A stretch of 19,329 nt of DNA from a virus (Duplodnaviria > Heunggongvirae > Uroviricota > Caudoviricetes): positions 1 to 19,329 of the IMG/VR virus record IMGVR_UViG_2802429248_000011; one strand, written 5' to 3'. A program made the translations under genes and the position numbers. Shown here piece after piece: positions 5,361-19,329 of the stretch (the stretch's first letter is position 1; each line of letters begins with the position of its first letter). The notes under the pieces are model-generated. The model saw nothing but the letters and a program-made list of their open reading frames with translations, did no database searches and was not told the DNA's origin.

Positions 5361-5411
5361 AAGGATAGCAACAAAACACAACCTACTTTAAACGGCTATA
5401 TTCTGCTATAT

Positions 5412-5531: not shown

Positions 5532-5566
5532 ATTCCACCCTAGTATTTTTATGCAGGAAAGATTAT

Positions 5567-5674: not shown

Positions 5675-6403
5675 GGGGACTCCAGTTTTTTAACAGCACA
5701 ATGCTGTATCTGTAATTATAGATGCAATTAATCATTATGGTATGTATGTTTCATGCACAAATCAGAAACGCATCTAGTGCTTTAATTAATATGGATTTTA
5801 TTGCTGTAGATTTACAAAAATTTTCATAATTAACCAGCAATATAAGACAAATATCTCATAACATGAGGGAAATCAAGCTCATTTAAAGCAATTTATAATT
5901 TTCATCCTACTATTTTCCCTACACTGCCAACACCAGTTTCGTCGCAACACTCTGACAAGACACCTATAAAATCAGTTTCGTTATCACCTTAATTTTCTTC
6001 ATGGGTAACAAACCGGTAATACATCGATAGCCTGATTGATGCACGTTACTGTTACCTCTTCCCTGCATCAGGATGGCTTCCCAAGATGATATGGTTAATC
6101 ACACTGGAACATTCACGCATAACCGTTTCCTTCATATCCTGCCGTTTTAGCATGTCTTTTCCCCTTCTTGTTAATATCAATGACTAACACAAATCTAAAA
6201 AAGCCAGCAATGTAAAAAAACTGCATTCACGGCAACCAGAATGGTTACCGTTCTGCACAAAGTTTATGTCCACAAAAAAACCACTCTGCGCGGCTTATTG
6301 ATATTTTCCACCGGTATGCATATAAGGCTCATCATTGGAAAACTCTTTGCACGTTTCCTTAGAAAATACAATCGTTATGTCGCCATCGTTCGGTGAAAAT
6401 CTT

Positions 6404-7156
6404 TTATCTTGTCACTTTTCTCAGTTGTGCTTCTGCATACGCTTCTTCCTGCCAGCACTTTGTTACCAGTTTATCAATGACGTCCGCATACCCCTTGTAC
6501 CACTGATAATCTGTCAGGTCCGGTACCAACTTCTGGACATGACGTCGTGCCAGTGTGGTCGGTAAACGACTAAACCTGTTTCCATTACAACGCCCACAAA
6601 TCTTATAAACCGGTACGCCATGAAGCCGGGTTCTTTTTTCATCCAGGACAATACCTTTACCCTTACACCCTCTGCACGCTGTGCTGACTTCGCCCTTACC
6701 ATGGCAATGCTGACATAGTTCCTTCCCCCATTCTTCCTTGATAACAGATTCCCCACTTCTGTAGTGTTTCACCACTTCGCGCAATACATTATGAAATCCC
6801 GTACCTGCACAATGTTCACAGCGAGCCTTACTTGCCGCAGACCTGGAATAATCAGCAAAGGCAAAATTCACAAGGTAAGGGATGATCTGTAACCGGGTTT
6901 CTTCACTCAATTTGTTCAATATCGGGTTATCCAGTGCCATCGCGTAATTGAGCAGACCTTCAATCGCAAACTGAGGGTTCTGAACACCAACTTTTGCCAG
7001 AAATAAGGCAAACCCAAGCGGTGCTTTCGACTGCACCATCCCCTGCGCAGCCATCACATCCGTAATTGTTAAACCACCAGAGCCTGTCGCCGGTGCGTCA
7101 TCGCTCAGTTTTGGTGATTTCGGGGAGTAATATTTCGGTAAGACTTCAAGGTTCAT
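6404..7156 (-). CDS. quuQ: Late-gene antiterminator Q (QuuQ-like, 250 aa) with a Cys-rich zinc-binding region
   Basis: MNLEVLPKYY...CEHCAGTG...CQHCHGKG...CRGCKGKG...CGRCNG. SD GGAGAACGAGC-ATG is present. Position is as expected (upstream DUF968, downstream lysis genes). Length equals K-12 QuuQ (250 aa). The ORF-track start (7198) would overlap the upstream gene. Confidence 0.75.
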   Translation of the reverse strand: MNLEVLPKYYSPKSPKLSDDAPATGSGGLTITDVMAAQGMVQSKAPLGFALFLAKVGVQNPQFAIEGLLNYAMALDNPILNKLSEETRLQIIPYLVNFAFADYSRSAASKARCEHCAGTGFHNVLREVVKHYRSGESVIKEEWGKELCQHCHGKGEVSTACRGCKGKGIVLDEKRTRLHGVPVYKICGRCNGNRFSRLPTTLARRHVQKLVPDLTDYQWYKGYADVIDKLVTKCWQEEAYAEAQLRKVTR

Positions 7157-7169
7157 GCTCGTTCTCCAC

Positions 7170-8165
7170 TTACGCCAGCACGCCAATTGCCAGCGCACGA
7201 TCGATAAAACGAAATATCAGCTTCAGCTGGGAGCCATACTTCTCTTCAAATGCCACGGTATCCGCATGCAGCTCGTCGTGATGCTTTCTGCACAAAGGCA
7301 ACACAAAGAGGTCATGCGCTTTTGTAGCCATTCCACCCTGACCGTGGCCTATCAGGTGGTGGGGATCATCAGCAGGCTTTCCACAACATGCACACGGCTG
7401 TGTCTTAACCCAGCGCGTGTACTTTTCGTTAACCCAGCGGCGACGTTTGGGGCGTAACATAAAAGACTCCGGCGACTCCGGATCCACTTTCAGCGCCAGC
7501 ACCTTTTTCGCTTTATCCTGGATAATGCTGGTGGCAGGAACCGAAGGCACAAGGTCACTTTCCCGGGTGACAGACGGCACAACAGGCTTCGGTAATCTCA
7601 GTGCCTTACGGGCTGCACTTTCCGGTAAGGCATCCGCCAGGTCATTACGAATCAGCCACCAGCACAGTTCCGGCATTGTCACAACGTGACTATCATCAAA
7701 ACCGAGATCCCGACGCACAACAGACAACACCCAACGGGCACAGTTATCCGTTGCCATTGATTCCAGCCGTTCCGTGAACTGATCGCGCAGCTGGTTATCG
7801 CAGTGCCAGCACAGACGGATTGCGCCCGGGGCGTGTCGCATTGTGGTCATGTTCTCGCTGTGCCAGTCGGAATGAGGCCACTGGCAGCCCTTTTCACGAA
7901 GTAACCAGCTTTCAAGACATTCCACGCCACCAGCACGACGGATCACTGCCTCATTGCGGAACACGGCCCGAACGGCAGGATCATCCGCCAGCGGTTGTGA
8001 TGCCGCCGGAACGGCACCACTGGCGAAAGATGAATAACGCTCCGGCTCAGGCTCCAGCAGGACACGCCCCTGCATAAACAGGGGCATCAGCTCTGAACCT
8101 GGCCTGAACAATACGATCCCCATACGCGGGGCAATTTCAGGGGTCAGCAGTGCTCTCACGGTCAC
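7170..8165 (-). CDS. ydfU: DUF968-family protein (YdfU-like) with a C-terminal HNH-like Cys/His motif
   Basis: The C-terminus has ...QPCACCGKPADDPHHLIGHGQGGMATKAHDLFVLPLCRKHHDELH. It lies between the replication genes and Q, as YdfU does in Qin. The start is a GTG; the alternative ATG at 8123 lacks an SD. Confidence 0.6.
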   Translation of the reverse strand: MTVRALLTPEIAPRMGIVLFRPGSELMPLFMQGRVLLEPEPERYSSFASGAVPAASQPLADDPAVRAVFRNEAVIRRAGGVECLESWLLREKGCQWPHSDWHSENMTTMRHAPGAIRLCWHCDNQLRDQFTERLESMATDNCARWVLSVVRRDLGFDDSHVVTMPELCWWLIRNDLADALPESAARKALRLPKPVVPSVTRESDLVPSVPATSIIQDKAKKVLALKVDPESPESFMLRPKRRRWVNEKYTRWVKTQPCACCGKPADDPHHLIGHGQGGMATKAHDLFVLPLCRKHHDELHADTVAFEEKYGSQLKLIFRFIDRALAIGVLA

Positions 8166-8211
8166 CTCAGCGAACGGTATTGCATGAACGCAGAAGAAAA
8201 AAATTCAGCCA

Positions 8212-8469
8212 TCACGCAGTAAACTCCTTCACCAGCGTTTCAAACTGGCTTACCTGGCCTTCCAGTTCCGCCACGCAATCCACCAGCTCATCCACCGCCT
8301 TTTGTGTGCGGTGTTTTGCCTGCAGCAGATCACGCAGCGCCGGAGTAAGCTGCTTGCAGAGCGTATCCTTTGCCACGCTCGTTTTTTCCATCTGTTCAGC
8401 ACAACGAAGCATCTCCTGTGCCTGCCGACGAAGTTGTTCCGGTGAAACAGTGGTTGTTCTGTTATTCAA
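8212..8469 (-). CDS. Small coiled-coil hypothetical protein (85 aa), TTG start coupled to the DnaB stop (TTGA overlap)
   Basis: MNNRTTTVSPEQLRRQAQEMLRCAEQMEKTS... SD ACGGAG is upstream. No family was recognised. Confidence 0.45.
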   Translation of the reverse strand: MNNRTTTVSPEQLRRQAQEMLRCAEQMEKTSVAKDTLCKQLTPALRDLLQAKHRTQKAVDELVDCVAELEGQVSQFETLVKEFTA

Positions 8470-9866
8470 AATAAACGCTCCGTTTTACTGCCCGACATGC
8501 GTTTATTGCTGTATCTGCGCGGATTGCCCGGAGTCATGGGTGTGGAAAGAACCCGGGCACTCTCCTGGTCCACAGGCAGAAAATGTCCGTTATAAAAACG
8601 CCGGTAAATCGTCCCCAGAGAACCGTTACGTTGTTTCGTGATATTGATTTCTGCGATGCCCCTGGCCTGCGTATCCGGGTTGTACACTTCATCCCTGTAA
8701 AGCATCAGAATGATGTCTGCATCCGCCTCTATTTCTCCGGAATTTTTCAGGTCCGAGTTCATGGGGCGTTTATTGGGTCTGGATTCCACGCCGCGGGAGA
8801 GCTGGCTAAGAGCAATCAGCGGAAAACCGCCGGATTTTGCCAGGCTTTTAAGTCCCTTTGAGATTTCCCCCACCGCAAGGTCGTGACGCCCCGTGCTGCG
8901 GGTTTTAATCAGGCCGAGGTAATCGACCACCACCAGCGCCGTTTCCGGGTGTTTCATCCGGTGGTGCTTCGTGGTTGCACATATCTCATCAATGGTCAGG
9001 TTTGCCTGGTCCACCATCCAGATATTACGCCCCGTCATTCGTCCCACGCCCTGCGAGAAACGCGCCCAGTCTTCATCTTCAAAACGGGCAACAGACTTAA
9101 GACGTGATACCGGCATTCCTCCAGCCGCAGACACCATACGTTCACCAATCTGGATGTTCGACATCTCCATGGTGAACAGAAGCACACCATGCCCCTGCTC
9201 AGTCACCTTGTCGATGATGTCCAGCGCAAGTTCGGTTTTCCCCATCGAAGGACGGGCGGCAATGAATACCAGGTCTCCGGGCTCCATACCGCCCGTTTTT
9301 GCGTCCAGTTCATCAATACCGGTCATCAGCGCCCTGGATTTCTCCAGTCCCTGATTGCGGCATTCAACACGGTCGACCACTTCCGGAAGGACATCATCAA
9401 TGTGAACCGGCTGAATGACGCCCTTTCCTGTCGACAGTGTGACCATCATGTTCTGCGCATCCTTCAGAGCATCCTCGGCTGCTTCACAGGTATGCGCATC
9501 ACGTAAATTCTGTAATGCTTCAGTCAGTGTTTTTTCTGCATCGCGCAGTGCGGCATTTCGCCGCAGCGCTGCAACATAGTGCTCCAGTGAAGACTTCACC
9601 CAGGTTTTACGCCCGGTGTCGGTAATCACCGGGGCAAGTTCCGGCATCTCATTGCACAGCAGCACGGGGTCAATGACGCCGGATACGCGAGCCTGTCTGC
9701 AAATCCCCGCGTAAATATCCCTGTACTGACGCACGAAAAAGACATCCGCCGGAAGCGTGGCCAGAATATCCATCACTTCCGGATCAGCCCCACGCAGAAA
9801 AAACGCGCCAATCACGGCACCTTCCAGGTCATCGTTACGCCATGCCGGATTTGTCGTTTTTGTCAT
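8466..9866 (-). CDS. dnaB: Replicative DNA helicase, DnaB family (phage-encoded, P22 gp12-like)
   Basis: Walker A (ARPSMGKTELALDI) and the DnaB C-terminal RecA-like fold motifs (LIALSQLSRGVE, ILMLYRDEVY) are present. The start at 9866 has SD AGAGGTG and an ATGA overlap with the DnaC-like stop. The longer ORF-track start (9905) would overlap by 43 nt. Confidence 0.85.
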   Translation of the reverse strand: MTKTTNPAWRNDDLEGAVIGAFFLRGADPEVMDILATLPADVFFVRQYRDIYAGICRQARVSGVIDPVLLCNEMPELAPVITDTGRKTWVKSSLEHYVAALRRNAALRDAEKTLTEALQNLRDAHTCEAAEDALKDAQNMMVTLSTGKGVIQPVHIDDVLPEVVDRVECRNQGLEKSRALMTGIDELDAKTGGMEPGDLVFIAARPSMGKTELALDIIDKVTEQGHGVLLFTMEMSNIQIGERMVSAAGGMPVSRLKSVARFEDEDWARFSQGVGRMTGRNIWMVDQANLTIDEICATTKHHRMKHPETALVVVDYLGLIKTRSTGRHDLAVGEISKGLKSLAKSGGFPLIALSQLSRGVESRPNKRPMNSDLKNSGEIEADADIILMLYRDEVYNPDTQARGIAEINITKQRNGSLGTIYRRFYNGHFLPVDQESARVLSTPMTPGNPRRYSNKRMSGSKTERLF

Positions 9867-10753
9867 GCTGCCACACCTCTGATATGCGCACGGTAGCTTT
9901 CCCAACCAAACACCAGGCAGTTACACCCACCATCAGTAACGCGATCCACAATCCGTTCACCAATGGATTCTTTAAGCTGTTCAAACGTCAGGTTGCTGAT
10001 CAAAATTGTCGGTAAAACGCTTTCGTAACGCGCATTTATGATTTCCTGCAGGATGGTTATCTCTGTAGGCGTGCCGAACTGCACACCAACCTCATCAATG
10101 ATCAGCAGGTTCAGTGAGGCGAAATGAGCGAGAACTTCATCCTCGGTACGCTCTGAATTGTGGCGCCAGGTATTTTTCACAGCGCGGGTCAGTCGCATAA
10201 CATCCGTAATTTCGACGGTCGCCTGGTGGTGGCGAATAATATTTTTTGCCATTGATACAGCCAGATGATTTTTCCCGGTACCACAATTGCCAATCATGAC
10301 CATGCTGGTACCCGCAGCAAGACACTTCTCCCATGAACCGGCATAGCGCCGACAAGCCTCAAGATTTCTCTGTGCGTCAGCATTCACCGCCTGATAATTC
10401 TCAAACTCGCAGTTCTGGAAGCGGCGGGCAATACCAGCCCTGTCGAGTAATTCATGAACTTTCAGGATGCGTAACGCCTCCTGTACCTGATCCAGCTCAT
10501 TCGCAATGCAGGTCGGGCAACCAGACACCCGTTTGATGGTTTCCCCACGAACATCTGGCCCTTTCAACACCAGACGTGTGTATTTCCCGTGTTTCTCACA
10601 CTCAGCAGTATCCTCGCTTGTCAGCCAGTGTTCACAGCGCCACGGACGCTTCCCGACACGGGCAAACTGCATCTCCTCCTCCAGTTCCGCCCTGCGGTTG
10701 AGCAATTGCGCTTTGTCGTGTTGTGCGTAGTGTTTTTTTAACTGTTCAAACAT
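9863..10753 (-). CDS. DnaC/IstB-like AAA+ helicase loader with an N-terminal Cys/His zinc-finger-like extension
   Basis: Walker A (GNCGTGKNHLAVSMAKN) and Walker B (LLIIDEVG) are present. The N-terminus carries CEHW...CEKH...CPTC. Confidence 0.8.
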   Translation of the reverse strand: MFEQLKKHYAQHDKAQLLNRRAELEEEMQFARVGKRPWRCEHWLTSEDTAECEKHGKYTRLVLKGPDVRGETIKRVSGCPTCIANELDQVQEALRILKVHELLDRAGIARRFQNCEFENYQAVNADAQRNLEACRRYAGSWEKCLAAGTSMVMIGNCGTGKNHLAVSMAKNIIRHHQATVEITDVMRLTRAVKNTWRHNSERTEDEVLAHFASLNLLIIDEVGVQFGTPTEITILQEIINARYESVLPTILISNLTFEQLKESIGERIVDRVTDGGCNCLVFGWESYRAHIRGVAA

Positions 10754-10772
10754 TGTTCATCACCTCGAAAAA

Positions 10773-11582
10773 TCACCAGTTGAAGTTCGTTGAACCGTAG
10801 TCCTGCTCACTGAATCCCGAGATCGGGAGGCCGGTAGTTCGCCCACCTCCGGGAGCGGCTGGCTGTTGCCAAGATTCCTCGAAGTGACGATCGGGTCCAA
10901 AGAACGTCGCAGCCTGCTTCACGAACTGTGTGCCGATATTTCCGGTAGCTCGTACCCAGGCGGCATACCGCTTCACGCCATCAAGCATGGTCTCCGGTTT
11001 TATTCCCTCCCTGATACGGGCTTTCCAGGCTTTGAAGGCTGCTGACTTGGAATTGCCACCGGCACGTTTGGGATATTCCTGCCAGGCCTGTTCAAATTCC
11101 GGTGAATATTCCTGTCGGGCAGAACGCGCTGGTGCAGACGCGTCAGCGGATGCGCCAATAGTTGATTCATTGACTGGTTCTTTGACTGGTTCAAAAGAGT
11201 GACTGGTTCTGGGTGAATCTCCTGCACTACCCCCTAGTGCAACTCCTGCACCACCTGGTGAATTTGTTGCACTAGGTAGTGAATTATTTGCACTACCACC
11301 TAGTGAATCTTTTGCACCATCAAGACGAAGAAGATAAATATTGCTCGAGTTGCCTTTTTCACCTTTCCGGGAAACTTTTTTTACCAGTCCCGATTCACAA
11401 AGAGCCGTAATATGATTCATCACAGAACGTTTGCTAATCTCGCACTGATCAGCAATATGCTGATAGCTGGGCCAGCACTCGCCCTGATCGCTGGCATTAT
11501 CAGCCAGCTTAATCAGAACCAGTTTTCGCAATGGATTCCCCACACGAATTTTCATCGCTTTAACCATCAGCTCCATGCTCAT
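10773..11582 (-). CDS. O: Replication initiator, lambda O-like (N-terminal HTH DNA-binding domain, low-complexity linker, C-terminal domain); the gene contains the ori iterons
   Basis: The N-terminus (...ECWPSYQHIADQCEISKRSVMNHITALCESGLV) is a winged-HTH initiator domain. A Gly/Ser/Ala linker is encoded exactly over the iteron array. SD GGGAGGTG is present. Confidence 0.75.
   Translation of the reverse strand: MSMELMVKAMKIRVGNPLRKLVLIKLADNASDQGECWPSYQHIADQCEISKRSVMNHITALCESGLVKKVSRKGEKGNSSNIYLLRLDGAKDSLGGSANNSLPSATNSPGGAGVALGGSAGDSPRTSHSFEPVKEPVNESTIGASADASAPARSARQEYSPEFEQAWQEYPKRAGGNSKSAAFKAWKARIREGIKPETMLDGVKRYAAWVRATGNIGTQFVKQAATFFGPDRHFEESWQQPAAPGGGRTTGLPISGFSEQDYGSTNFNW
11171..11345. 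repeat. ori: Phage replication origin: 3x TGACTGGTTC direct repeats (11171-11209), 4-5 palindromic iterons TGCACTAcc(n)cCTAGTGAAT (about 11224-11321), and a flanking A/T-rich box (11325-11345)
   Basis: The repeats are read directly from the sequence. Spacing is 20-24 bp, about two helical turns. The location inside the initiator gene mirrors the lambda ori inside O. Confidence 0.7.
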
Positions 11583-11803
11583 AGAGCACCTCCCAGGCGT
11601 TTAAACATTTTTCCGGACTGAAACGCCATCAACGGATAGCTAATGGTGTAGTTACGCCCCAGTAATTCACACACAACTTTCTGGCTTTCGGTGCTGACCA
11701 GGCAAACCCGCAGAACGTGACCGTTGCTGGTGGCGAACCACTGCCCCACACGGGGGCAACGGTTGTATCGGTGATACAGGGAATTAACGATGTAGCGGAT
11801 CAT
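11579..11803 (-). CDS. Hypothetical protein (74 aa), early operon
   Basis: SD GGAGGTG is present. ATGA overlaps occur at both ends (11800-11803 and 11579-11582). Confidence 0.5.
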   Translation of the reverse strand: MIRYIVNSLYHRYNRCPRVGQWFATSNGHVLRVCLVSTESQKVVCELLGRNYTISYPLMAFQSGKMFKRLGGAL

Positions 11804-11994
11804 GGACGCACCTCCGCCGTAGTTACGTATTTAACCGGGCTACCTTTCATTGAGATGGTTTCACACATCTCTGCCGCTTTCAGTTCCGCCGTTTTTCTGG
11901 ATTTATAGCGACGGTGCCAGACAGATACATCCGTGCGAACTGATACATCGTTTCTGTATTCCGTAGTGGAGATGATGATTTCGTAACTAATCAT
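11800..11994 (-). CDS. Hypothetical protein (64 aa), early operon
   Basis: The start at 11994 (MISYEIIISTTEY...) has SD GGGAGGT and an ATGA overlap with the upstream stop. The ORF-track start (12009) lies inside the upstream gene. Confidence 0.5.
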   Translation of the reverse strand: MISYEIIISTTEYRNDVSVRTDVSVWHRRYKSRKTAELKAAEMCETISMKGSPVKYVTTAEVRP

Positions 11995-12353
11995 GGGCGT
12001 ACCTCCCATTGATTACGGCGAAAAGCAGTGTGATTCAGGCTGGTTTCAGCCTCATGGAATGCTCCAATGCAGCTCTCGTAGTACCGCATTGTGCGTAGAC
12101 TTAACCCAAGCTGAAGCATCATCAGGCCATCAAGGGTGATGTAATAACCACGCAGGGAGTCACCATAGATGTGGTAAGTACCCGGTATGAAGTTGCGGGT
12201 AAAAAATTCGCGCGAGCAGTTCAGATACTCGATTTTGTCGACGATGTTCTGGTGCATGCGCTTAAAGTGGCAGGCAACATGCAGGGAGAAAATAACAGCT
12301 TTGCCGTTGACGACTTCGATTTTGAGGAATGGGGAAGTTGGGACTGTAGCCAT
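11991..12353 (-). CDS. Hypothetical protein (120 aa from the strongly supported internal start; the open frame extends to 12653/12887)
   Basis: AAGGAGG lies 8 nt before the ATG at 12353 (MATVPTSPFLKIEVVNGK...). The upstream in-frame stretch translates as a low-complexity G/S/A/P-rich sequence. It would overlap the Rha-like gene by 120 nt and contains an antisense terminator, so it is treated as non-coding. Confidence 0.45.
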   Translation of the reverse strand: MATVPTSPFLKIEVVNGKAVIFSLHVACHFKRMHQNIVDKIEYLNCSREFFTRNFIPGTYHIYGDSLRGYYITLDGLMMLQLGLSLRTMRYYESCIGAFHEAETSLNHTAFRRNQWEVRP

Positions 12354-12740
12354 GATGGCAGCCTCCTTGATCGGTGAAAAACTTCCACCACCGGAGCTGC
12401 GAAACTCATGGGTGGTGAACTGAACAGGGTTCGCAGTACCGGCGATCAAGGAAACCGGCGAGCCTTTCGGCTCCCCTGCCCAGCCCACCATAATTCTGGC
12501 GTGCGTGAGCGCAGACGATAAAAAAGACGCTGGCGCGTCGTATATCGCCTTGATCAATTCCGGGCTGCGACCCCCGGCACCCGCTTTATAAGGTGCTGGA
12601 ACAGTGTAACGTCCCGAAATTACAGAATCAATATTTTGGCTTGAAACATTCATATGCTTACTGGTATTTTTACTAACGCAAATGTTCTTGGATGTTACTG
12701 GCTTACTTCTTTGTGAGGTTGCCTTTACTAACGTTGAGCG

Positions 12741-12767
12741 AGCCGGGTCACTACCCGGCTTTTTTTC
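12741..12767 (+). terminator. Strong plus-strand-only intrinsic terminator, antisense to the early-right operon (3' end of a candidate OOP-like sRNA)
   Basis: AGCCGGGT-cact-ACCCGGCT is followed by T7. On the minus strand the hairpin is followed by CGCTCAACG with no U tract, so pR transcripts read through. It overlaps the stop codon of the Rha-like gene. Confidence 0.7.
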
Positions 12768-13473
12768 ACCGCTGCCAACCAATAACCTGAAATAACCCCA
12801 TTTTCGGGTGATACCAGCGAGTCCCTCGCGGTTCTGCTTCCGCCATAACCTGATGGAAAGCAGCCATAAACGGTTCCACGGCAACAATTGCGCGACGTGA
12901 CAACAATCCGTCCGGCGTCATGAACTCATGGGTGTCTGTAGGAATTTGATAAGCGTTCACCAGATTGCGGCATTTATCATCTGACAAACCGGTTTTCGCT
13001 TTCAGTTGGCGATATCCGGCATAGCCCTCACGAATGTTGCCCTTTTTGATTTGCTCAACTGTTTCGGCAACGTGGCTGACTTTTTCTTCCACCTGAGTGA
13101 TCCGTTTCTGCTGACGAACAGCTTCAAGAGCCATCGCGGCAACCATTTCGATTTCGCTCATTGGCTTACGGATCTGTTCTTCCAGTTCGCGCCAGCGATC
13201 TACTAGGCGGGCTGTGAATTCGGGACAAAGCTGTGCGACGACAATGATGCTGTCGCGCTTACCTTGTTCGCCTTCGAAGATGTAAGCACCTACATTTCGT
13301 TTTAATCCTAAGTTGTTGATTATTTCGAAATTCGCCATTGGCGCACTTCGAATAATCCCCTTATCCATGAGCCTTTCAATGCTGCGCTTAACATCTTTGT
13401 GTTGGCTGCCCACCAACTCTGCGATTTCAAGGCTGGTCATGGATGCTTTGCCGTTAAAAATTGCGGTGTTCAT
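12766..13473 (-). CDS. rha: Rha-family phage regulatory protein (intact paralog)
   Basis: The N-terminus ...SMTSLEIAELVGSQHKDVKRSIERLMDKGII... matches the Phage_pRha domain. ATGA coupling with the cro-like stop. Confidence 0.6.
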   Translation of the reverse strand: MNTAIFNGKASMTSLEIAELVGSQHKDVKRSIERLMDKGIIRSAPMANFEIINNLGLKRNVGAYIFEGEQGKRDSIIVVAQLCPEFTARLVDRWRELEEQIRKPMSEIEMVAAMALEAVRQQKRITQVEEKVSHVAETVEQIKKGNIREGYAGYRQLKAKTGLSDDKCRNLVNAYQIPTDTHEFMTPDGLLSRRAIVAVEPFMAAFHQVMAEAEPRGTRWYHPKMGLFQVIGWQR

Positions 13474-13733
13474 TGTTGGTCTCCTGTGGGCTTGTCATCC
13501 TCTGTGTGCGCTAAGCTTGGATGTGGAAAAAGCTCTGGTAGGTCTGGACGAAATTCATACGCTTGGATCTTTCCGTCGACAGCTGCAACCAATAACGGCA
13601 CAAATTCTGGTGAAATCTTGTTCTTGCAGTTCAACCAATCGCAGACTGTTGACTGGGCCTTTCCGCATCGCTTGGCTAAGGCTTGCTGACTTCCAAGAAT
13701 CTCAATAGCTTTCTCTATGGCTTTATGTTTCAT
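13470..13733 (-). CDS. cro: Cro-like / YdaS-like HTH regulator, first gene of the pR operon
   Basis: MKHKAIEKAIEILGSQQALAKRCGKAQSTVCDWLN... is an HTH. SD AGGAG lies 8 nt upstream. The gene is divergent from cI across an operator/promoter region. Confidence 0.65.
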   Translation of the reverse strand: MKHKAIEKAIEILGSQQALAKRCGKAQSTVCDWLNCKNKISPEFVPLLVAAVDGKIQAYEFRPDLPELFPHPSLAHTEDDKPTGDQQ

Positions 13734-13745
13734 AATCGCATCTCC

Positions 13746-13774
13746 TATTGAACGCATAATAACAACAGGAAAAG
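13746..13774 (-). promoter_or_regulatory. pR-like sigma70 promoter for the early-right operon
   Basis: On the minus strand: -35 TTGAAT (13769-13774), 17-bp spacer, -10 TATTAT (13746-13751), about 12 nt to the cro SD. Confidence 0.55.
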
Positions 13775-13808
13775 CGATATTCAACGTTAAACCTAGAACA
13801 TTTATCGG
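13775..13808. promoter_or_regulatory. Operator-like sites in the cro/cI intergenic region (oR): palindrome TATCGGAAAGCCGATA (13793-13808) and related CGTTAAACCTAG (13775-13786)
   Basis: A 16-bp perfect palindrome lies upstream of the pR -35. A second related site abuts the -35. Both resemble the two sites at the promoter downstream of cI. Confidence 0.45.
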
Positions 13809-13852
13809 AAAGCCGATAGACTAGCCAAGATAGAGAGGGGAGGAAAATCGCA

Positions 13853-14545
13853 ATGACATTTTCAGAACGACTTGATTTAGCTATGCGCAACGCAAAATTT
13901 ACGCAAGGTAGGCTGGCCAAAGAAGTGGGTATGGCTCAGTCCAGTGTCAATCAACTACTTAACAAAGCCAACGGTTCCAGAAAAACAGTCGAAATAGCAA
14001 AAGTTTTGGGCGTTAACCCGGAATGGCTCGCATCGGGTGTTGGCCCAATGGAAATCGTGACCTCTGCAGACTCACACCAAATACGTAACATTTCTGAAGA
14101 TTGGGTTACTGATTCGTATGTCGTGGATGTTTTAGACATCAGATATAGTTGCGGACCTGGCAGTTATAACTCTGATTTTCCTGACATTGTCAGATCTATA
14201 GCGATAGAACCAGGATACGCATCAAGAGTTTTTGGCGGCAGACCAGCATCAGCAATCAAAGCAATAAACGCCCACGGCGACAGTATGAAAGGCACAATAG
14301 ACCCTGAAGACTTGGTATTTGTAGATGTATCAGTTCGCACATTTAATGGTGATGGTATATACGCCTTTACATACTCTGGAACATCGCACATCAAAAGACT
14401 TCAAAAAATCAAAGATACTCTAACGGTGATATCTGACAACCCAGCTTACAAGGATTGGGCTATCGAACCGGAAGACTTTGAACAACTTCACATTGACGGA
14501 AAAGTAATTGTCAGTTGGCCTATGACACTACACCGTTTTGCATAA
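13853..14545 (+). CDS. cI: CI-type prophage repressor (N-terminal XRE HTH, C-terminal S24 LexA-like autopeptidase)
   Basis: The N-terminal HTH is QGRLAKEVGMAQSSVNQL. The C-terminus has the Ser nucleophile in AHGDSMKGTI and the Lys in SHIKRLQKI. SD GGGGAGG is present. Confidence 0.85.
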   Translation: MTFSERLDLAMRNAKFTQGRLAKEVGMAQSSVNQLLNKANGSRKTVEIAKVLGVNPEWLASGVGPMEIVTSADSHQIRNISEDWVTDSYVVDVLDIRYSCGPGSYNSDFPDIVRSIAIEPGYASRVFGGRPASAIKAINAHGDSMKGTIDPEDLVFVDVSVRTFNGDGIYAFTYSGTSHIKRLQKIKDTLTVISDNPAYKDWAIEPEDFEQLHIDGKVIVSWPMTLHRFA

Positions 14546-14563
14546 GCAAAAATCATTTAACCC

Positions 14564-14589
14564 GCCCACTCTTAAGTGGGCTTTTTTTT
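14564..14589 (+). terminator. Intrinsic terminator after cI
   Basis: GCCCACT-ctta-AGTGGGC is followed by T8. Confidence 0.75.
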
Positions 14590-14596
14590 GGAAAAA

Positions 14597-14638
14597 ATCG
14601 ATAAACCGATTGACAGGCGAAATCGGTAAACCTATTAT
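14597..14638 (+). promoter_or_regulatory. pL-like sigma70 promoter (-35 TTGACA 14610-14615, 17 bp, -10 TATTAT 14633-14638) flanked or overlapped by two operator-like sites (AATCGATAAACCGATT 14597-14612; AATCGGTAAACCTATT 14621-14636)
   Basis: The -35 is a consensus hexamer and the spacing is ideal. Both flanking 16-mers share the ATCGR-TAAA-CCKAT pattern with the oR palindrome. Confidence 0.6.
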
Positions 14639-14687
14639 TATGGCATAGGTATCGAACTCACCAAAGCAATTATAGAGGATGAGAAAA

Positions 14688-15185
14688 ATGTCATCGTATA
14701 TGGGGTTACCAACAAATCAGCACGATGCTCTTGAGAATATTCAGCTCTTAGTCGGGGCTGGTGCACTACTGTATAGCAGCAATAACCCTGAGTTAATTGA
14801 ACTTGCCAGCTCCATCCTGGCTGTAACTCAAAAATATAGCCTCACAGCGTCGCGTTTATGCAAACAAAATTTAGCTATTAATTCCCAGAATCGGATTAGC
14901 ACTCAACGCGAAGCCTGCGGCTTAACAACCGCCGAACTCGCCAGGCTGCTCGATCTCGATGAAGAAATTATCATCCAGTGGGAGAGCGGAGAGTATGAAC
15001 CAACCATCAGCATGCTTATCCCACTGGCAAATATTCTTGGCTGCGATCCGATGTGGCTGTTAACTGGCGAGGTTACTCCTCCGGAGCAACCAAAAAGTGA
15101 GGAGCAGCAACACCATGACGCATCTCAACAAGTTTGCTCCTTATCTCGCGAAGCTCTTCTACGGAAGAACCAATACCAATGGTGA
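14688..15185 (+). CDS. XRE-family HTH transcriptional regulator (165 aa; HTH in the C-terminal half), first gene after the pL-like promoter
   Basis: ...CGLTTAELARLLDLDEEIIIQWESGEYEPTISMLIPLANILGCDPMWLLTGE is HTH_3-like and resembles DicA-type repressors. The ATG at 14688 has AGAGGA at -8. The first ATG (14679) abuts the SD. Confidence 0.6.
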   Translation: MSSYMGLPTNQHDALENIQLLVGAGALLYSSNNPELIELASSILAVTQKYSLTASRLCKQNLAINSQNRISTQREACGLTTAELARLLDLDEEIIIQWESGEYEPTISMLIPLANILGCDPMWLLTGEVTPPEQPKSEEQQHHDASQQVCSLSREALLRKNQYQW

Positions 15186-15313
15186 CATAATCACCGCTTC
15201 GCCCCTCAAGGTACATGCGAACATTTTTATCAATCATTGCGGAAACAGTCTCAATATGAAAACACTTCTGAGACTCGCTATATAGCAGAACATATAAGTC
15301 AGCTGAGGAAGCC

Positions 15314-15679
15314 GTGAAAAAGTTCGAAAACATAACTGCTCTCCATGTTGATGACTTTGATTATACAAACCCGGAACTTCTCCCGGAGGTTGTAAAGGCA
15401 ATAGATGTTGCCGATATAGTGATTAGAGGAAAGAGAATCGTCAAAAACAGGCTCGCATGCACTTCAGGAGCAATGACAGAAACAACCTCACAACAAGATG
15501 ATTATGAAGGCATTTGTCTGGAGCCGGACTCATTTGCGGTAAATGTTTATCATTTATTGCATGCAACACAGGTATTACATATGTCAAGTAATCACGAAAC
15601 AAAAACACTTGGCAGCGAAATTCTGAATTTTGCATGTGAATATGCAAAAGCTGCTGCCGAAAAAGAATTAGCACAATAA
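15314..15679 (+). CDS. Hypothetical protein (121 aa), GTG start
   Basis: SD GAGGAAGCC-GTG is present. No family was recognised. Confidence 0.45.
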   Translation: MKKFENITALHVDDFDYTNPELLPEVVKAIDVADIVIRGKRIVKNRLACTSGAMTETTSQQDDYEGICLEPDSFAVNVYHLLHATQVLHMSSNHETKTLGSEILNFACEYAKAAAEKELAQ

Positions 15680-15875
15680 CAATAAATATTCCCTGAATGT
15701 TTATTACGGTTTTATCGCCGGGGATTGTTGCAACCTTTATTCGCAGGTGATTATGTTATGACTTTCCTGAAACATAAGGCATCGTATAAAACTGCCTGCC
15801 TCATTGTACAACATGGAGATTCTTATCTTCATATAGCCAACCTGTATTTGCGCAAAGCATATGGGAGATAAGTCA

Positions 15876-16064
15876 ATGGAAGAAAAACAACAAAACATAA
15901 CACATAAAAAAGTAAGAGTGTTGCTAACCATTGAAAATGGGAAGGTAATTCACTCAAAACATCTGTTGGATAATGAATTTGTTGGCTGCATGGATACATT
16001 TTTGTTGGTGGTAAAAAGAGCGGGTTACACTATTATTCCACCAGCAAAGGAGCAAACATTATGA
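15876..16064 (+). CDS. Hypothetical protein (62 aa)
   Basis: SD GGGAGATAAGTCA-ATG is present. ATGA overlap with the next gene. A possible promoter precedes it (TTGCAA 15728-15733, 17 bp, TTATGT 15751-15756). Confidence 0.5.
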   Translation: MEEKQQNITHKKVRVLLTIENGKVIHSKHLLDNEFVGCMDTFLLVVKRAGYTIIPPAKEQTL

Positions 16065-16642
16065 ATCATTCAGAGTTCCGACCAGAAGTTACGCCACACG
16101 GTATAAAAATTGGCAATACAACCATAGATTATGCCGAGGCCGTACAGCGACTTAATGATGGTGAATACGATAATCCAAATTCTCAAGGTTTAAGAATTAT
16201 GCAGTGTATTGCTGAAGCCGATGATGCCGGATTACTGGGACGATTTTCAGTCGATATGAAAGTTGCTCAATGGCGATGGCTGTATGTGACAACATTTATA
16301 AATGAAGAGGAAGACAAGAACGGCACCATTGATATCCCTAACGATAATGGAACTACAGATCGCGCAGTTATTTACAAGGGTAAACATGGTTGCCTGAGTA
16401 TCTACCCAGGGCCACTTCGCATTGCCCTGCAAAACCATGTCGAATGGAGATTCATTGAAAAATATGGCGAAGCTGAAGGCATGGGGCGAGTTCTGTTTCT
16501 CTATCAAAAAATGCTCATCGCAGATCCTGATAATGGCTTCATTGTCTCTGCTATGGGACGAGAAGGGCTTGAACTTCTTCTGGATGAAATGATTCACGAT
16601 CTGAATACTCATGGTATGCCAGAAACACCATTGGCACATTAA
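16061..16642 (+). CDS. Hypothetical protein (193 aa)
   Basis: SD AAGGAG lies 9 nt upstream. Translationally coupled to both neighbours. No motif was recognised. Confidence 0.6.
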   Translation: MNHSEFRPEVTPHGIKIGNTTIDYAEAVQRLNDGEYDNPNSQGLRIMQCIAEADDAGLLGRFSVDMKVAQWRWLYVTTFINEEEDKNGTIDIPNDNGTTDRAVIYKGKHGCLSIYPGPLRIALQNHVEWRFIEKYGEAEGMGRVLFLYQKMLIADPDNGFIVSAMGREGLELLLDEMIHDLNTHGMPETPLAH

Positions 16643-16644
16643 AC

Positions 16645-16926
16645 ATGTCAAATCAGAATAAAATTAATGTATTTCAGGTTGAATCAAAACATAAAACACC
16701 TGTGATAAAACACGTTCGCCGCCATACACTCATCTATACGCCAGAAGAGTTTATGGCAATTCCAATGATAAAGAAGTTTATTCGTGATAATCCCGATCAC
16801 ATTGCTATAGATAAACATAACGGAGAAATAATGTTATCACGCGAACTTGCCGAAATTTACTGTAACGTGAATAACGGTAAAAAATTGAAAAAGGCAATCC
16901 GAAAAAAATCAGGAGTAACAAAATGA
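16645..16926 (+). CDS. Hypothetical basic protein (93 aa)
   Basis: The start is 2 nt after the preceding stop. Lys-rich C-terminus. ATGA overlap with the next gene. Confidence 0.5.
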   Translation: MSNQNKINVFQVESKHKTPVIKHVRRHTLIYTPEEFMAIPMIKKFIRDNPDHIAIDKHNGEIMLSRELAEIYCNVNNGKKLKKAIRKKSGVTK

Positions 16927-17291
16927 ATAGCATCGAGACACAATGTTCCTCATCTGAAGTTATGAACTATGACCCGAATCTGACGTTGTACGGACGCATG
17001 GCAAAACAAACTGTTCTATTAACTTTCGGGCTATGGGAATACCGCGAAACATTCGAAGTTTCTGTCGGCGGCAATCTGACCGGACTGGATGTTATCAGTT
17101 GCGCCATTGAAAGCCTGTACGCAACGCTGCCTTATGAAGAAGTCGAGGATGAGCGCGATATCATAGCCACCATTAATATCGGCGGCATGGAATGCAAGGA
17201 TGAAAACCTGAACGGAGAACTCTGGCTTGCCGGGATGCTTATCTCGGCAGAAATCATCAGTATTGAACCCGCTACAAACATACGACTCTGA
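16923..17291 (+). CDS. Hypothetical protein (122 aa)
   Basis: SD AGGAG lies 7 nt upstream and the gene is coupled to its neighbours. Confidence 0.55.
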   Translation: MNSIETQCSSSEVMNYDPNLTLYGRMAKQTVLLTFGLWEYRETFEVSVGGNLTGLDVISCAIESLYATLPYEEVEDERDIIATINIGGMECKDENLNGELWLAGMLISAEIISIEPATNIRL

Positions 17292-17322
17292 AGTTCTCAC
17301 AACTCAGGGAGCAGGAGAAAAA

Positions 17323-17565
17323 ATGTTCGCTTTGATTAATCAGGGGCAACTGTATACCGATAGTGCTGGCTACCCGATAAAAATTATTCGCTGCATAAAC
17401 AACACTGTGTTGTACAGAAGAATGGATGGGCGAACACAGTCGGTAAAAATAAACGATTTTAATGAACTGTTTGAACGAATCGATCACCAGGAATACCGAC
17501 AAATTCTGGCAGAAACAGAGCAGGAAGCTCATCTGAAAAAATTACGGGTCATGAAAAGGAAGTAA
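17323..17565 (+). CDS. Hypothetical protein (80 aa)
   Basis: MFALINQGQLYTDSAGYPIKIIRCINNTVLYRRMDGRTQSVKINDF... has SD GGAGCAGGAG at -7. The ORF-track start (17227) overlaps the previous gene and has no RBS. Confidence 0.5.
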   Translation: MFALINQGQLYTDSAGYPIKIIRCINNTVLYRRMDGRTQSVKINDFNELFERIDHQEYRQILAETEQEAHLKKLRVMKRK

Positions 17566-17568
17566 AGA

Positions 17569-17715
17569 ATGAATAAAGCGTTTGAGCTATGGGTACGCCA
17601 GCGTTACGGCAATCGCTATGACCTGACGCGAGATGTTGACGGTTTCCACTGTCGTGAAATTGTGAAACGAATGTTTGAAGTGTGGTGTTACTGTCGTGGA
17701 CTGAATGTTGTGTGA
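17569..17715 (+). CDS. Small hypothetical protein (48 aa), below the ORF-track length cutoff
   Basis: atgaataaagcg...gttgtgtga translates to MNKAFELWVRQRYGNRYDLTRDVDGFHCREIVKRMFEVWCYCRGLNVV. SD AAGGAAG is at -8. It fills the gap between neighbouring genes exactly. Confidence 0.45.
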   Translation: MNKAFELWVRQRYGNRYDLTRDVDGFHCREIVKRMFEVWCYCRGLNVV

Positions 17716-17723
17716 GGTAATGC

Positions 17724-17960
17724 ATGGGCAATGTGATTCAACTGGCTCCCAATGAATGGGTTTGTGAAAGCGTTCTTATCGCAATTACCGGGCTCAAACC
17801 AGGCACAATTCTTCGGGCCCGGAAAGAATGCTGGATGGTTGGAAGAGAGTATATTCACGTATCACCAGACGGTAATCCAAAGCCTTCCAGCGAATGTATG
17901 TATAACAGAAAAGCAATAGATGCCTGGGTCGCTTCAATGAAAAACAAACAACCTGGGTGA
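17724..17960 (+). CDS. xis: Excisionase-like protein (DUF1233/Xis family of Rac/DLP12-type prophages)
   Basis: ...AITGLKPGTILRARKECWMVGREYIHVSPDGNPKPSSECMYNRKAIDAWV. It lies immediately upstream of int. SD GAGGT is present. Confidence 0.6.
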   Translation: MGNVIQLAPNEWVCESVLIAITGLKPGTILRARKECWMVGREYIHVSPDGNPKPSSECMYNRKAIDAWVASMKNKQPG

Positions 17961-18015
17961 TTTAATGCCATGAAATATGTAAGCTCGTATCGCTCTTGGG
18001 CGTCTGGAGGTATGA

Positions 18016-19329
18016 ATGGATAAAGTTAAATATCCAACAGGCGTCGAAAACCACGGTGGCACATTGCGCATCTGGTTTAATTTTAAAGGTAAACGTGTCA
18101 GGGAAAATCTTGGTGTCCCTGACACTGCCAAGAACAGGAAGATTGCCGGAGAACTGCGGACATCGGTATGTTTTGCCATCCGCACAGGAAGCTTTGATTA
18201 TGCTGCACAGTTCCCTGACTCCCCTAACCTTCAGGCTTTTGGGGTAAGTAAAAAAGAAATTACGGTGAAAGAACTTGAAGAAAAGTGGCTGGATCTGAAA
18301 CGAATGGAAATCTCTGCAAATGCATTCAATCGTTATGAATCCGTTGCAAGAACGATGGTCCCGAAAATTGGAGGTAGCAGACTGGTGTCAACGGTGACCA
18401 AAGAGGAATTGCTGTATATCAGGAAAGATTTGCTGACCGGATACCAAAATCCAACAAAAGGTAAGGCTCCGGTAAAAGGGCGAAGCGTTATCACAGTAAA
18501 TTATTACATGACGACAATCGCTGGAATGTTTCAGTTTGCTGCAGATCACGGTTACTTAGAAGCAAATCCCTTCCAGGGAATTAAGCCTCTTAAAAGAGCC
18601 AGGGCAGAGCCAGATCCGCTAACTCGTGACGAATTTATTCGCCTGATAGATGCTTGCCGACATCAGCAGACGAAAAACCTGTGGTCATTGGCTGTGTACA
18701 CAGGAATGCGTCACGGTGAACTGGTCTCCCTGGCCTGGGAAGATATCGATCTGAAAGCAGGAACTATTACTATCAGGCGCAATTATACGAAACTCGGTGA
18801 GTTCACTCTACCTAAAACTGAAGCAAGTACAAACAGGGTTGTGCATCTTATCCAGCCCGCTATCAGTGTCCTGAAAAATCAGGCTGAAATGACAAGACTG
18901 GGTAAGCAGCACAACATCAAGGTTCAACTACGTGAATATGGACGTTCAGTGAATCATGAATGTACTTTCGTGTTTAACCCCCAGGTGGTTAGAAAAAGCA
19001 AACAGGTCGGTTTTATCTACAAGGTAGATTCTATTGGCGACTCATGGGAAACAGCCATTAAGCGTGCGGGCATCAGGCACCGGAAAGCATACCAGTCACG
19101 ACACACTTATGCGTGCTGGTCATTATCTGCCGGAGCAAACCCAAGCTTCATTGCCAGCCAGATGGGCCATGCAAGTGCCCAGATGGTGTTCAATGTATAC
19201 GGAGCATGGATGACTGACAGTAATGCAGAACAGATCGCAATGCTGAATCAGAAGCTGGCAGATTATGTCCCAATGATGTCCCATGGTCACCAAAGTGACA
19301 CAAGAGACTTATTAAAATCAGTGGGTTAG
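18016..19329 (+). CDS. int: Tyrosine integrase, lambda-Int superfamily (Rac/P22-type N-terminal arm-binding domain)
   Basis: The N-terminus YPTGVENHGGTLRIWFNFKGKRVRENLG resembles the IntR/P22 Int N-terminus. The C-terminal catalytic motifs ...HELVSLAWEDI..., HRKAYQSRHTYACWS and VYGAWM (Tyr) are present. The stop codon is the last triplet of the window. Confidence 0.9.
   Translation: MDKVKYPTGVENHGGTLRIWFNFKGKRVRENLGVPDTAKNRKIAGELRTSVCFAIRTGSFDYAAQFPDSPNLQAFGVSKKEITVKELEEKWLDLKRMEISANAFNRYESVARTMVPKIGGSRLVSTVTKEELLYIRKDLLTGYQNPTKGKAPVKGRSVITVNYYMTTIAGMFQFAADHGYLEANPFQGIKPLKRARAEPDPLTRDEFIRLIDACRHQQTKNLWSLAVYTGMRHGELVSLAWEDIDLKAGTITIRRNYTKLGEFTLPKTEASTNRVVHLIQPAISVLKNQAEMTRLGKQHNIKVQLREYGRSVNHECTFVFNPQVVRKSKQVGFIYKVDSIGDSWETAIKRAGIRHRKAYQSRHTYACWSLSAGANPSFIASQMGHASAQMVFNVYGAWMTDSNAEQIAMLNQKLADYVPMMSHGHQSDTRDLLKSVG

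Follow-up and report, generated by a model that had tools for sequence, protein, structure and literature searches.

Introduction

In lambda and Shiga toxin (Stx) phages, the exo-xis region's genes are early, non-essential and mosaic, and affect lysogenisation, induction and host physiology (PMC3824215, PMC8614690). Accessory genes of another kind, rexAB and bstA, are located between cI and pL, on the transcript of the repressor (PMC8585504). Here we analyzed a cluster of small genes at positions 14597-17715 of a 19,329-nucleotide (nt) stretch of DNA from a Caudoviricetes virus, record IMGVR_UViG_2802429248_000011. We refer to the whole stretch, positions 1 to 19,329 of that record, as the window. 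The cluster is located between the cI repressor gene and xis/int. The DNA of the window covers the regulatory and early half of a lambdoid prophage, and the cluster interval is probably the largely ordinary early-left operon of a common phiP27-type lambdoid prophage.

Two characterized systems resemble parts of the cluster. RgdR (ECs1581) is a protein of 99 amino acids (aa) encoded in a phage-inducible island. It activates LEE1/type III secretion, represses motility and shows weak, non-specific DNA binding (PMC3378721, PMC10877973, PMC6092414). Its RGD tripeptide is needed to activate type III secretion (PMC3378721). In the SinR/SinI pair of Bacillus subtilis, a small antagonist with a copy of the oligomerisation domain of the XRE-type repressor heterodimerises with the repressor and abolishes its DNA binding (PMC3163267). 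Our analysis indicated, with a probability of roughly three in four, that the cluster is a cI-repressed accessory early-left operon of the lambda exo-xis/ea type, with a regulatory module at its front and an RgdR-like regulator near int.

Results

Promoter and operators

The cI gene is followed by an intrinsic terminator (Table 1). Its stem contains seven pairs, five of them G-C, and is followed by TTTTTTTT (terminator scan). The open reading frame (ORF) list and the terminator scan revealed no ORF between the cI stop codon and the terminator, which are ~18-19 nt apart. In the slot at 14546-14609, the terminator and then directly oL1 come after the cI stop codon; the classical slot for cargo between cI and pL is empty. 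The pL-like promoter downstream is the best scoring in the 6 kb scanned. The 17-mers of oL1 and oL2, which overlap it, form a direct repeat 25 nt apart. The exact motif ATCG-N6-CGAT is found at two sites in the window only, at 14597 in oL1 and at 13804 in the cI/cro intergenic region. With one mismatch, the motif has 16 matches in the window compared to 6.6 expected, and none of 200 shuffles reached 16.

Relatives with other immunity carry their own motifs. In PhiR49_2 and Stx2_EH2201, AAAATCAAG-type words are found in two regions of each phage, cI/cro and the DNA upstream of the HTH (helix-turn-helix) gene. In phiP27, CCAAAGTATCA is likewise common to the two regions. Since each of these relatives has its own shared oR/oL motif, the promoter region changes together with the repressor. 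A strong promoter 3' of the cI terminator, with operators carrying the oR motif, places the cluster in a cI-controlled pL-type early operon. These observations suggest that pL is under operator control by cI, and binding is predicted. Because the genes are located downstream of operators that match oR, the + strand genes should be silent in the lysogen and expressed on induction or infection.

The terminator scan predicted no + strand terminator between 14640 and 18016. Promoter-like sites inside the region are rarer than expected by chance (7 found, 11.8 expected), and the promoter scan found no convincing internal promoter. Thus the cluster is probably a conduit for the expression of xis and int. 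The first-pass annotation of this DNA had proposed a near-consensus promoter with two operators after the cI terminator, and an HTH regulator as the first gene; both proposals agree with our analysis.

Relatives and mosaicism

The nearest relatives are E. coli prophages located beside yecE/yecN, in which the interval is 94.6% identical over 100% of its length. The best match to the window among complete E. coli genomes is 96.2% identical over 70%, and none is identical. The phiP27 genes L10 to L03 are the counterparts of the cluster. A published phage genome and annotated bacterial genomes by the hundred already contain the region, with its products invariably labelled as hypothetical proteins. 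The cluster is therefore not the orphan that it had been taken for.

Parts of the interval were found in 655 of 5426 complete E. coli genomes, only 42 of which hold at least 80% of it. Mosaic pieces were read, in query coordinates, from a sample spread down the ranking of the 655 genomes. They include 300-2023, which is the rest of the HTH gene through g193, as well as 300-1275/1405, 2366-2825 (the DUF5406 gene and the start of the DUF4222 gene), and 2726-3119 and 2871-3119 (the DUF4222 gene and g48b). In some relatives, a 62-aa gene and an SPFH/Band-7 gene are inserted before the DUF5406 gene. PhiR49_2 has ea22- and eaA-type genes where the window has g93, DUF5406 and DUF4222, and keeps g48b, xis and int. 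ASU11 has a different cI and a two-HTH regulator with the same downstream genes. The phages phiP27, PhiR49_2, ASU11 and those of the Stx2a type have the layout of cI, an HTH gene in some cases, small ORFs and xis/int, as do Salmonella, Citrobacter and Klebsiella prophages.

Judged from these sequences, the region is a typical lambdoid mosaic: its early genes can be exchanged independently, and one core is conserved. That the pieces exchange independently argues against a single multi-gene system. The loci of the relatives bear out the earlier view that the region is mosaic and variable between phages. Conservation as a block, for which a neighborhood comparison of prophages had been proposed, was not observed.

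Gene content

Genes from g37 to xis are tightly packed: neighbors overlap by ATGA (at 16061 and 16923) or are separated by 2-8 nt. The first two junctions are not tight: the gap between the HTH gene and g121 is 128 nt and that between g121 and g37 is 78 nt. The tight coupling described in the first-pass annotation hence applies from g37 through xis. Its description of SD (Shine-Dalgarno) sequences as uniformly good does not extend to g93, which has none. Its list of genes of 48-193 aa needed three corrections: the 48-aa ORF is a 37-aa gene (ATG 15758), 67 aa becomes 62 aa (15876) and 112 aa becomes 80 aa (17323). The TTG starts of the 48-aa and 112-aa ORFs were both rejected. We also rejected the antisense ORFs other than m86 (77, 64, 134, 89, 86 and 60 aa), which contain stop codons in diverged relatives. 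Folding of the two gaps is not significant for a terminator or attenuator (z-scores -0.94 and -0.09), and Rfam gave no match inside the cluster at gathering thresholds or at E<=1.

Several cluster genes have a GC content of 0.33-0.39, compared to 0.46 for the window. The products are acidic (the HTH regulator, g121, g193 and the DUF5406 protein) or basic (g37, g62, g93, the DUF4222 protein and g48b). Homologues of the small genes are found in Salmonella, Citrobacter and Klebsiella prophages at 33-66% identity, with substitutions mostly at third codon positions, in line with the earlier argument that the genes are real.

Family matches were found for seven of the nine + strand products, the exceptions being g37 and g93. 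The earlier statement that no product has a recognizable family does not hold, with matches to DUF5406, DUF4222 and PHROGs 4739/4836, 5451, 340, 1515, 3409, 285 and 3871. All of these PHROGs are annotated as unknown function except phrog_4836, a 'CII-like regulator'.

Searches of Pfam, PHROGs and NCBIfam revealed no homology to Exo/Bet/Gam, Erf, Kil, CIII, N, SSB/Ea10 or Ral in any product. In tblastn searches against lambda 19-38.2 kb, whole P22 and 933W 1-20 kb, only a generic HTH match to c2 and the xis match were found. These results are consistent with the earlier remark that nothing in the cluster resembles exo/bet/gam, N, cIII, kil or ssb. For the exo-xis/ea families, there is no Pfam match to Ead_Ea22, DUF1382 or DUF1317 and no tblastn match. 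PADLOC-DB v2 gave only HTH hits to the regulator (RmrA, CapH, HTH_VI), and none for the other products, m86 and g37 included. Sequence searches of solved structures with g193, the DUF5406 and DUF4222 proteins, m86, g93 and g62 gave nothing below E 0.08.

The HTH regulator and g121 share a domain

The first gene encodes a regulator of the XRE type. It most likely begins at 14688, which is preferred over an alternative ATG at 14679. An SD sequence, AGAGGA, is located 11 nt upstream of 14688, and the homologue P0141 begins with MSSYMGL. The regulator consists of an N-terminal two-helix domain, referred to as the X domain, followed by HTH_3 and a conserved C-terminal tail. The N-domains of its homologues are variable. 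The tail motif QQHxxASQQxGxxSxE is kept in homologues that are only 36-46% identical (P0161, P0183, P0251, P0281). The DNA encoding this motif (15085-15185, + strand) is located opposite the C-terminus of the antisense gene m86, and the last 113 nt of the regulator gene seem to encode protein on either strand.

A label as lambda CII-type activator was rejected, since Pfam gives generic XRE HTH families only (HTH_3, HTH_19, HTH_31). The regulator has no match to lambda cII or P22 c1, and its best NCBIfam match, DicA, is below the cut-off. Several database entries, among them P0149 (200 aa), join the regulator to a 62-aa ORF in the +1 frame (window 15097-15285, + strand). Such fusions are evidently frameshifted or mis-called variants, and this 62-aa ORF has no family of its own.

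The second gene, g121, carries a copy of the X domain. The 66-aa family phrog_4587 matches the regulator at residues 3-58 and g121 at residues 57-121, so that the C-terminal 65 aa of g121 correspond to the N-terminal X domain of the regulator. An alignment of the regulator N-domain, built by exhaustive phmmer searches, was compared by hhalign with an alignment of the g121 C-domain that included stand-alone proteins of 66-69 aa. The two aligned with a probability of 97.1% and an E value of 4.9e-11 over 54 columns. The regulator and g121 also share the domain in PhiR49_2 and Stx2_EH2201 (loci L004 and L006) and in the Salmonella prophage locus L014, as indicated by tblastn. Some relatives contain the X domain alone as a 66-69-aa protein, which in Stx2a phages is encoded right after the regulator gene. 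Like SinI, g121 is a small partner with a copy of the non-DNA-binding domain of the regulator and without an HTH. It may titrate or modify the regulator. A profile search of solved structures with g121 gave nothing below E 0.08.

Three small acidic helical proteins of 61-69 aa are encoded between the g121 and g62 homologues in L014 (5086-5859), with no counterpart in the window. Their sequences follow similar patterns, such as ...LLRMFESYPD... in comparison with ...LGAWFESSRDD..., and they are possibly a tandem family.

The antisense gene m86

The 128-nt gap between the HTH gene and g121 is filled by m86 on the opposite strand, which had been missed earlier. Its 3' end is convergent with the HTH gene and overlaps its last 113 nt. 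Its 5' end is divergent from g121 and overlaps its first 20 nt. The PHROG match could reflect over-annotation, and m86 was therefore tested by its identity in L014, by codon positions and by comparison with ASU11. It is intact and 76% identical in L014, a Salmonella arizonae prophage in which the HTH regulator is 55% and g121 33% identical. Across the 128 nt without + strand coding sequence, the substitutions between m86 and L014 are distributed over the codon positions of the minus frame as [3,0,17] (p=2.8e-6). The same count against ASU11 is [4,1,10]. In ASU11, the stretch matching the overlap with the HTH tail is non-coding on the + strand, yet the m86 protein is still conserved. Every other antisense ORF of at least 60 aa in the cluster gains stops in diverged relatives. 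By these measures m86 is a real gene.

The m86 protein has no Pfam or PADLOC match, and no PDB match either as a single sequence or as a profile. It is soluble, with no predicted membrane segment and a grand average of hydropathy of 0.01. An identical protein is recorded for E. coli O55:H7 RM12579 as well as on 349 contigs, and near relatives are found in Shigella, E. albertii and Salmonella. The gene is truncated in phiP27 and absent from Stx2a phages. A perfect TATAAT is located 27 nt upstream of its ATG, without a -35 element, and is not kept in L014. A conserved TTGACR further upstream lies within a conserved part of g121. Codon 7 (15313-15315, - strand) is ATG in all relatives (MFSNFFM...) and ACG (Thr) in the window. 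If Met7 were the true start, the gene would be inactivated here; but the SD sequence GGAGAG precedes Met1.

The g37-g62-g193 core

A conserved non-coding element, ATCGCCGGGGATT, is located 31 nt upstream of g37. Six relatives carry it unchanged, among them Stx2_EH2201, whose flanks have diverged, and it is present as a single copy in the window. An exact match to ATCGCCGGGGATT is absent from the Salmonella locus L014. The ATG of g37 is within the 48-aa TTG ORF at 15725-15871, and the frame upstream of this ATG is broken by a stop codon in PhiR49_2 and Stx2_EH2201. The g37 protein is conserved across four genera. It is 66%, 53% and 52% identical in Citrobacter, Salmonella and Klebsiella prophages, with many synonymous changes. 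Codon-position counts are [9,4,14] and [10,5,17], and no other frame is open there.

The start of g62 at 15876 follows the SD sequence GGGAG, and relatives are annotated with a gene of 189 nt, 37% identical in L014. The 67-aa ORF listed earlier is thus probably this 62-aa gene. All 11 loci holding g193 also hold g37. Across genera, g193 always follows an S24 repressor gene and is surrounded by small ORFs that match no Pfam family. The three genes form a conserved core, for which the gene junctions predict translational coupling. Structure models of g193 and the DUF5406 protein are confident and compact, and matched no known or enzyme-like fold. The profile and structure searches proposed earlier thus yielded no known fold for these two products, although families were matched for seven of the nine.

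The int-proximal genes

The gene g93 is optional. Loci L001, L003 and L005 have it; phiP27, PhiR49_2 and Stx2_EH2201 lack it. No Pfam, PHROG or PDB match was found for it, and support for a coding role is weak (codon-position counts [8,8,13]).

The next product belongs to DUF5406, with 76.6 bits compared to the cut-off of 25 and a match to profile positions 1-116 of 116. A literature search on DUF5406 returned no papers. In Pseudomonas-group prophages, DUF5406 shares its operon with ERF/SSB or Rad52-type recombinases, which indicates that it is found alongside a recombination module rather than in its place. The cluster had been described as a replacement of the recombination/kil module. No such module is recognizable in the interval, but the replacement is one of position only.

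Many relatives have an extra SPFH/Band-7 gene before DUF5406 (Band_7 E 1.1e-30; L003 4825-5837, L002 6468-7295, L006 8103-8930), which is absent from the window. It is annotated variously as 'serine protease' or 'lipoprotein', and the 62-aa gene precedes it in L003. Host SPFH proteins (HflK/C) modulate FtsH. As a speculation, the SPFH gene could be a functional counterpart of cIII.

The following product belongs to DUF4222 (56.3 bits, cut-off 27). RgdR is the one characterized member of this family, which it matches with 82 bits on the same model (E 2.1e-23). Close orthology to RgdR was rejected: the protein is a distant relative with QGQ in place of RGD. The last gene before xis is g48b. Both PhiR49_2 and a Citrobacter prophage (79% identical) keep it beside xis, though its neighbors differ.

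Other features of the window

The remaining features are consistent with a lambdoid prophage. Lysis genes occupy the left part of the window. Two cold-shock-protein genes are located between the Q antiterminator and the lysis genes and look like moron-type cargo of the late region. One of them has a full-length cspA thermoregulator 5' untranslated region (157.9 bits). The Q antiterminator contains a DnaJ-type CXXCXGXG zinc-finger region (DnaJ_CXXCXGXG E 3.7e-8). A DUF968 gene with an HNH-like region overlaps it by 29 nt (window 6404-8165, - strand). The order after Q is the DUF968/HNH gene, DnaB helicase, a DnaC-like loader, an O-like initiator and then the Ash and Rha genes. C4 antisense RNA and IsrK RNA are both encoded between the Rha and Ash genes, within an over-long 298-aa TTG ORF (11991-12887). 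This site looks like a P1/P7-type C4/antirepressor immunity module beside a lambda-type cI/cro switch.

Table 1. Features of the cluster and of the rest of the window (window coordinates; pI, isoelectric point)
Feature	Position	Strand	pI	Evidence and remarks
cI repressor	13853-14545	+		Peptidase_S24 E 7.5e-17, HTH_19; annotated LexA-family regulator in relatives
Intrinsic terminator of cI transcript	14564-14581 + T8 (to 14589)	+		GCCCAC-TCTTAA-GTGGGC
oL1	14595-14611			16/17-mer AAATCGATAAACCGATT; overlaps -35
pL-like promoter	-35 TTGACA 14610-14615; -10 TATTAT 14633-14638	+		Spacer 17; 11/12 consensus positions
oL2	14620-14636			16/17-mer AAATCGGTAAACCTATT; overlaps -10
oR-type operator core	13804-13817			cI/cro intergenic region; ATCGGAAAGCCGAT
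HTH regulator, XRE-type, 165 aa	14688-15185	+	4.6-4.8	HTH_3 E 1.5e-10; phrog_4739 E 2.7e-57; phrog_4836 E 3e-50
m86, 86 aa	15333->15073	-		phrog_6104 E 5.9e-49; SD GGAGAG
g121, GTG start, acidic	15314-15679	+	5.0	phrog_5451 E 1.4e-82
Conserved non-coding element	15714-15726	+		ATCGCCGGGGATT, within TTACGGTTTTATCGCCGGGGATTGTT; upstream of g37
g37 microprotein, 37 aa	15758-15871	+	9.8	MTFLKHKASYKTACLIVQHGDSYLHIANLYLRKAYGR; ATG inside 48-aa TTG ORF
g62, 62 aa	15876-16064	+	8.9	phrog_340 E 1e-21; stop overlaps g193 start (ATGA)
g193, acidic	16061-16642	+	4.85	phrog_1515; no known fold
g93, basic	16645-16926	+	10.0	No family, no SD; optional gene
DUF5406 protein, 122 aa	16923-17291	+	4.05	PF17400 E 2.4e-21; phrog_3409
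DUF4222 protein, 80 aa, basic	17323-17565	+	9.5	PF13973 E 2.3e-15; phrog_285
g48b, small basic protein	17569-17715	+	9.0	phrog_3871 E 1.6e-34; directly upstream of xis
xis	17724-17960	+		DUF1233 E 9.5e-33
int	18016-19329 (window end)	+		Arm-DNA-bind_2 + Phage_integrase
Lysis cassette	1691-2837	-		Left part of window
Cold-shock-protein gene	3526-3967	-		Between Q antiterminator and lysis genes
Cold-shock-protein gene	4106-4318	+		Between Q antiterminator and lysis genes
Q-type antiterminator	6404-7198			Antiterm E 1.2e-53
C4 antisense RNA	12408-12495	-		Rfam 85 bits; between Rha and Ash genes
IsrK RNA	12520-12596	-		Rfam 57.6 bits; between Rha and Ash genes
Cro of YdaS family	13470-13730	-

Discussion

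Proposed operation of the operon

Our analysis suggests how the cluster may operate. Binding of cI to oL1 and oL2 in the lysogen would occlude the -35 and -10 elements of the near-consensus sigma-70 promoter. After cI cleavage, or upon infection, one terminator-free transcript would run from the HTH gene through g121, g37, g62, g193, g93, DUF5406, DUF4222, g48b and xis to int. Expression of the small genes would come first of all, and xis and int would likewise be expressed through this operon in a phage without N or Red/Erf. Three sub-modules can be proposed: the HTH regulator, the convergent antisense m86 and g121 at the front; the coupled core of g37, g62 and g193; and the int-adjoining DUF5406, DUF4222 (RgdR-like small regulator) and g48b. 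The small genes are proposed to be independent, exchangeable accessory genes that tune the lysis-lysogeny decision and host physiology, rather than one multi-protein machine. The sequences show the anatomy, the operators in common with oR, the homologies, the mosaicism and that the genes are real; we infer when they are expressed, that the regulator interacts with its decoy, and any effect on the host.

Several observations weigh against this proposal. Repression of the cluster by cI is predicted by sequence logic only. Read-through to int is deduced from the absence of predicted terminators and with no N-like antiterminator; Rho-dependent termination may occur. An AU-rich hairpin followed by UUUU is present after g121 (15680-15715) and could attenuate transcription, although its folding is not significant (z -0.94). 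The X domains of the regulator and the adjoining g121 are no more alike within a phage than between phages, and thus show no co-evolution signal. In addition, no cluster gene is homologous to any exo-xis gene, and the comparison with that region is by position and style only.

Alternative explanations

The first-pass annotation had linked the cluster to rexAB, sieB and lysogenic-conversion cargo. Expression in the lysogen for superinfection exclusion, abortive infection or lysogenic conversion appears quite unlikely. The region adjoining immunity is a recognised mosaic hotspot and the home of BstA and Rex (PMC8585504), several of the genes are AT-rich, and relatives carry the extra SPFH-domain gene at this site. 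However, the hotspot between cI and pL is empty here, and all the + strand genes are located behind a promoter covered by oR-like operators. PADLOC matches beyond the HTH hits and convincing internal promoters are both absent from the cluster, whose pieces shuffle independently. A sieB-like placement fits only m86, a gene not on the earlier list, and a role in the lysogen is plausible for m86 only. It is placed like sieB, is more conserved than its neighbors and has the perfect TATAAT upstream. Against this, m86 is soluble and not similar to SieB, its TATAAT has no -35 partner and is not conserved in L014, and the gene is not intact in all relatives. A different objection would be that g37, g93, g48b and m86 are partly chance frames in conserved non-coding or regulatory DNA, which we regard as very unlikely. 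It draws on g93, with its missing SD sequence and family and its weak codon pattern, and on the closest genome, in which RefSeq annotates neither g37 nor m86; g37 also has no PHROG. However, the g37 protein is kept with synonymous changes in four genera in the sole open frame, the substitution bias of m86 is strong and its frame stays open at 76% identity in Salmonella while other antisense ORFs gain stops, and g48b has both a PHROG family and a close Citrobacter copy.

A role in early counter-defence or host takeover is compatible with the cI-repressed operon and is possible, though doubtful. The acidic proteins g193, DUF5406 and g121, or the small basic proteins g37 and g48b, might, in the manner of Gam, Ral, Kil and CIII, act on restriction, RecBCD, FtsZ or FtsH. 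In lambda and P22, the genes ral, gam, abc, kil and cIII are early and proximal to pL. The strong acidity of DUF5406 and g193, their confident and compact models without an enzyme-like fold match, the retention of DUF5406 in early-left operons from Escherichia to Pseudomonas and the conservation of g37 all point in this direction. However, acidity alone is weak evidence, and the family and structure searches revealed no homology or fold similarity to a known anti-defence protein, Kil or CIII. It is also conceivable, but rather unlikely, that the first three genes are an undescribed phage switch composed of the XRE regulator, the X-domain decoy and antisense m86 and, separately, that g193, DUF5406 or g37 are new inhibitors of host defence or physiology. 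In such a switch, convergent transcription and titration by the decoy would set the level of early-left transcription, and hence of xis and int.

Significance

The region itself is already known, and the window adds a further copy of a phiP27-type operon that is common and has been sequenced but not characterised. The new points are modest: m86, the domain shared by the regulator and g121, the linkage of g37 to g193, and the lack of a known fold for g193 and DUF5406. As it stands, the result matters little, and its value is as a pointer to tractable experiments. Cluster genes are found in about one in eight complete E. coli genomes, and phiP27-type prophages include some Stx2-converting phages. 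According to the operon model, the genes are on the route to xis/int expression, would be made at prophage induction and include a relative of RgdR. If the front module controls early-left transcription, it would help explain the timing of excision in lambdoid phages without N and could bear on how Shiga-toxin prophages of the family are induced. Being compact and well modelled, and having no known fold, the g37-g62-g193 core and DUF5406 could reasonably be screened for anti-defence or host-takeover functions.

Comparison with known systems

Unlike rexAB and bstA, the cluster is not linked to the transcript of the repressor, and the slot that they occupy is empty here. Like sieB of lambda and P22, m86 is located on the opposite strand inside the early-left operon. 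However, the two have no sequence similarity. m86 has 86 aa compared to ~190 aa in SieB, is not hydrophobic and overlaps both of its neighbors. The regulator and g121 resemble SinR/SinI in that an XRE regulator is followed by a small protein with a copy of its non-DNA-binding helical domain and no HTH. No homology was detected between the two pairs. SinR has the shared domain at its C-terminus and the regulator here at its N-terminus, and an interaction between the regulator and g121 is suggested by analogy.

The DUF4222 protein and RgdR belong to the same Pfam family, and both are small basic proteins encoded in mobile elements. Their identity is 30% over 27 aa, and QGQ is found here where RgdR has RGD. 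The window protein has 80 aa compared to 99 aa in RgdR, and is encoded in a lambdoid pL operon rather than a P4-like island.

The closest systems are phiP27 L03-L10 (NC_003356 / AJ298298) and the prophages at the yecE side (DUF72 gene). They have the same gene order, with 93-95% nt identity over 75-100% of the interval, and the same xis, int and integration neighborhood. phiP27 differs in its cI/operator set, its shorter HTH gene, the lack of g93, the extra SPFH gene (L05) and the truncated m86. Its cluster products are all annotated as 'unknown'.

The overall layout matches that of lambda in mirror image: cI, terminator, oL/pL, early-left genes, xis and int. There is no sequence similarity to the lambda exo-xis/b/ea genes (ea8.5, ea22, orf60a/61/63) or to the P22 ea genes. 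Here, in the absence of N, cIII, kil, gam, bet and exo, the small genes fill the entire stretch from pL to xis. As in lambda and P22, they are small mosaic genes in the predicted pL transcript, located between the immunity region and xis/int.

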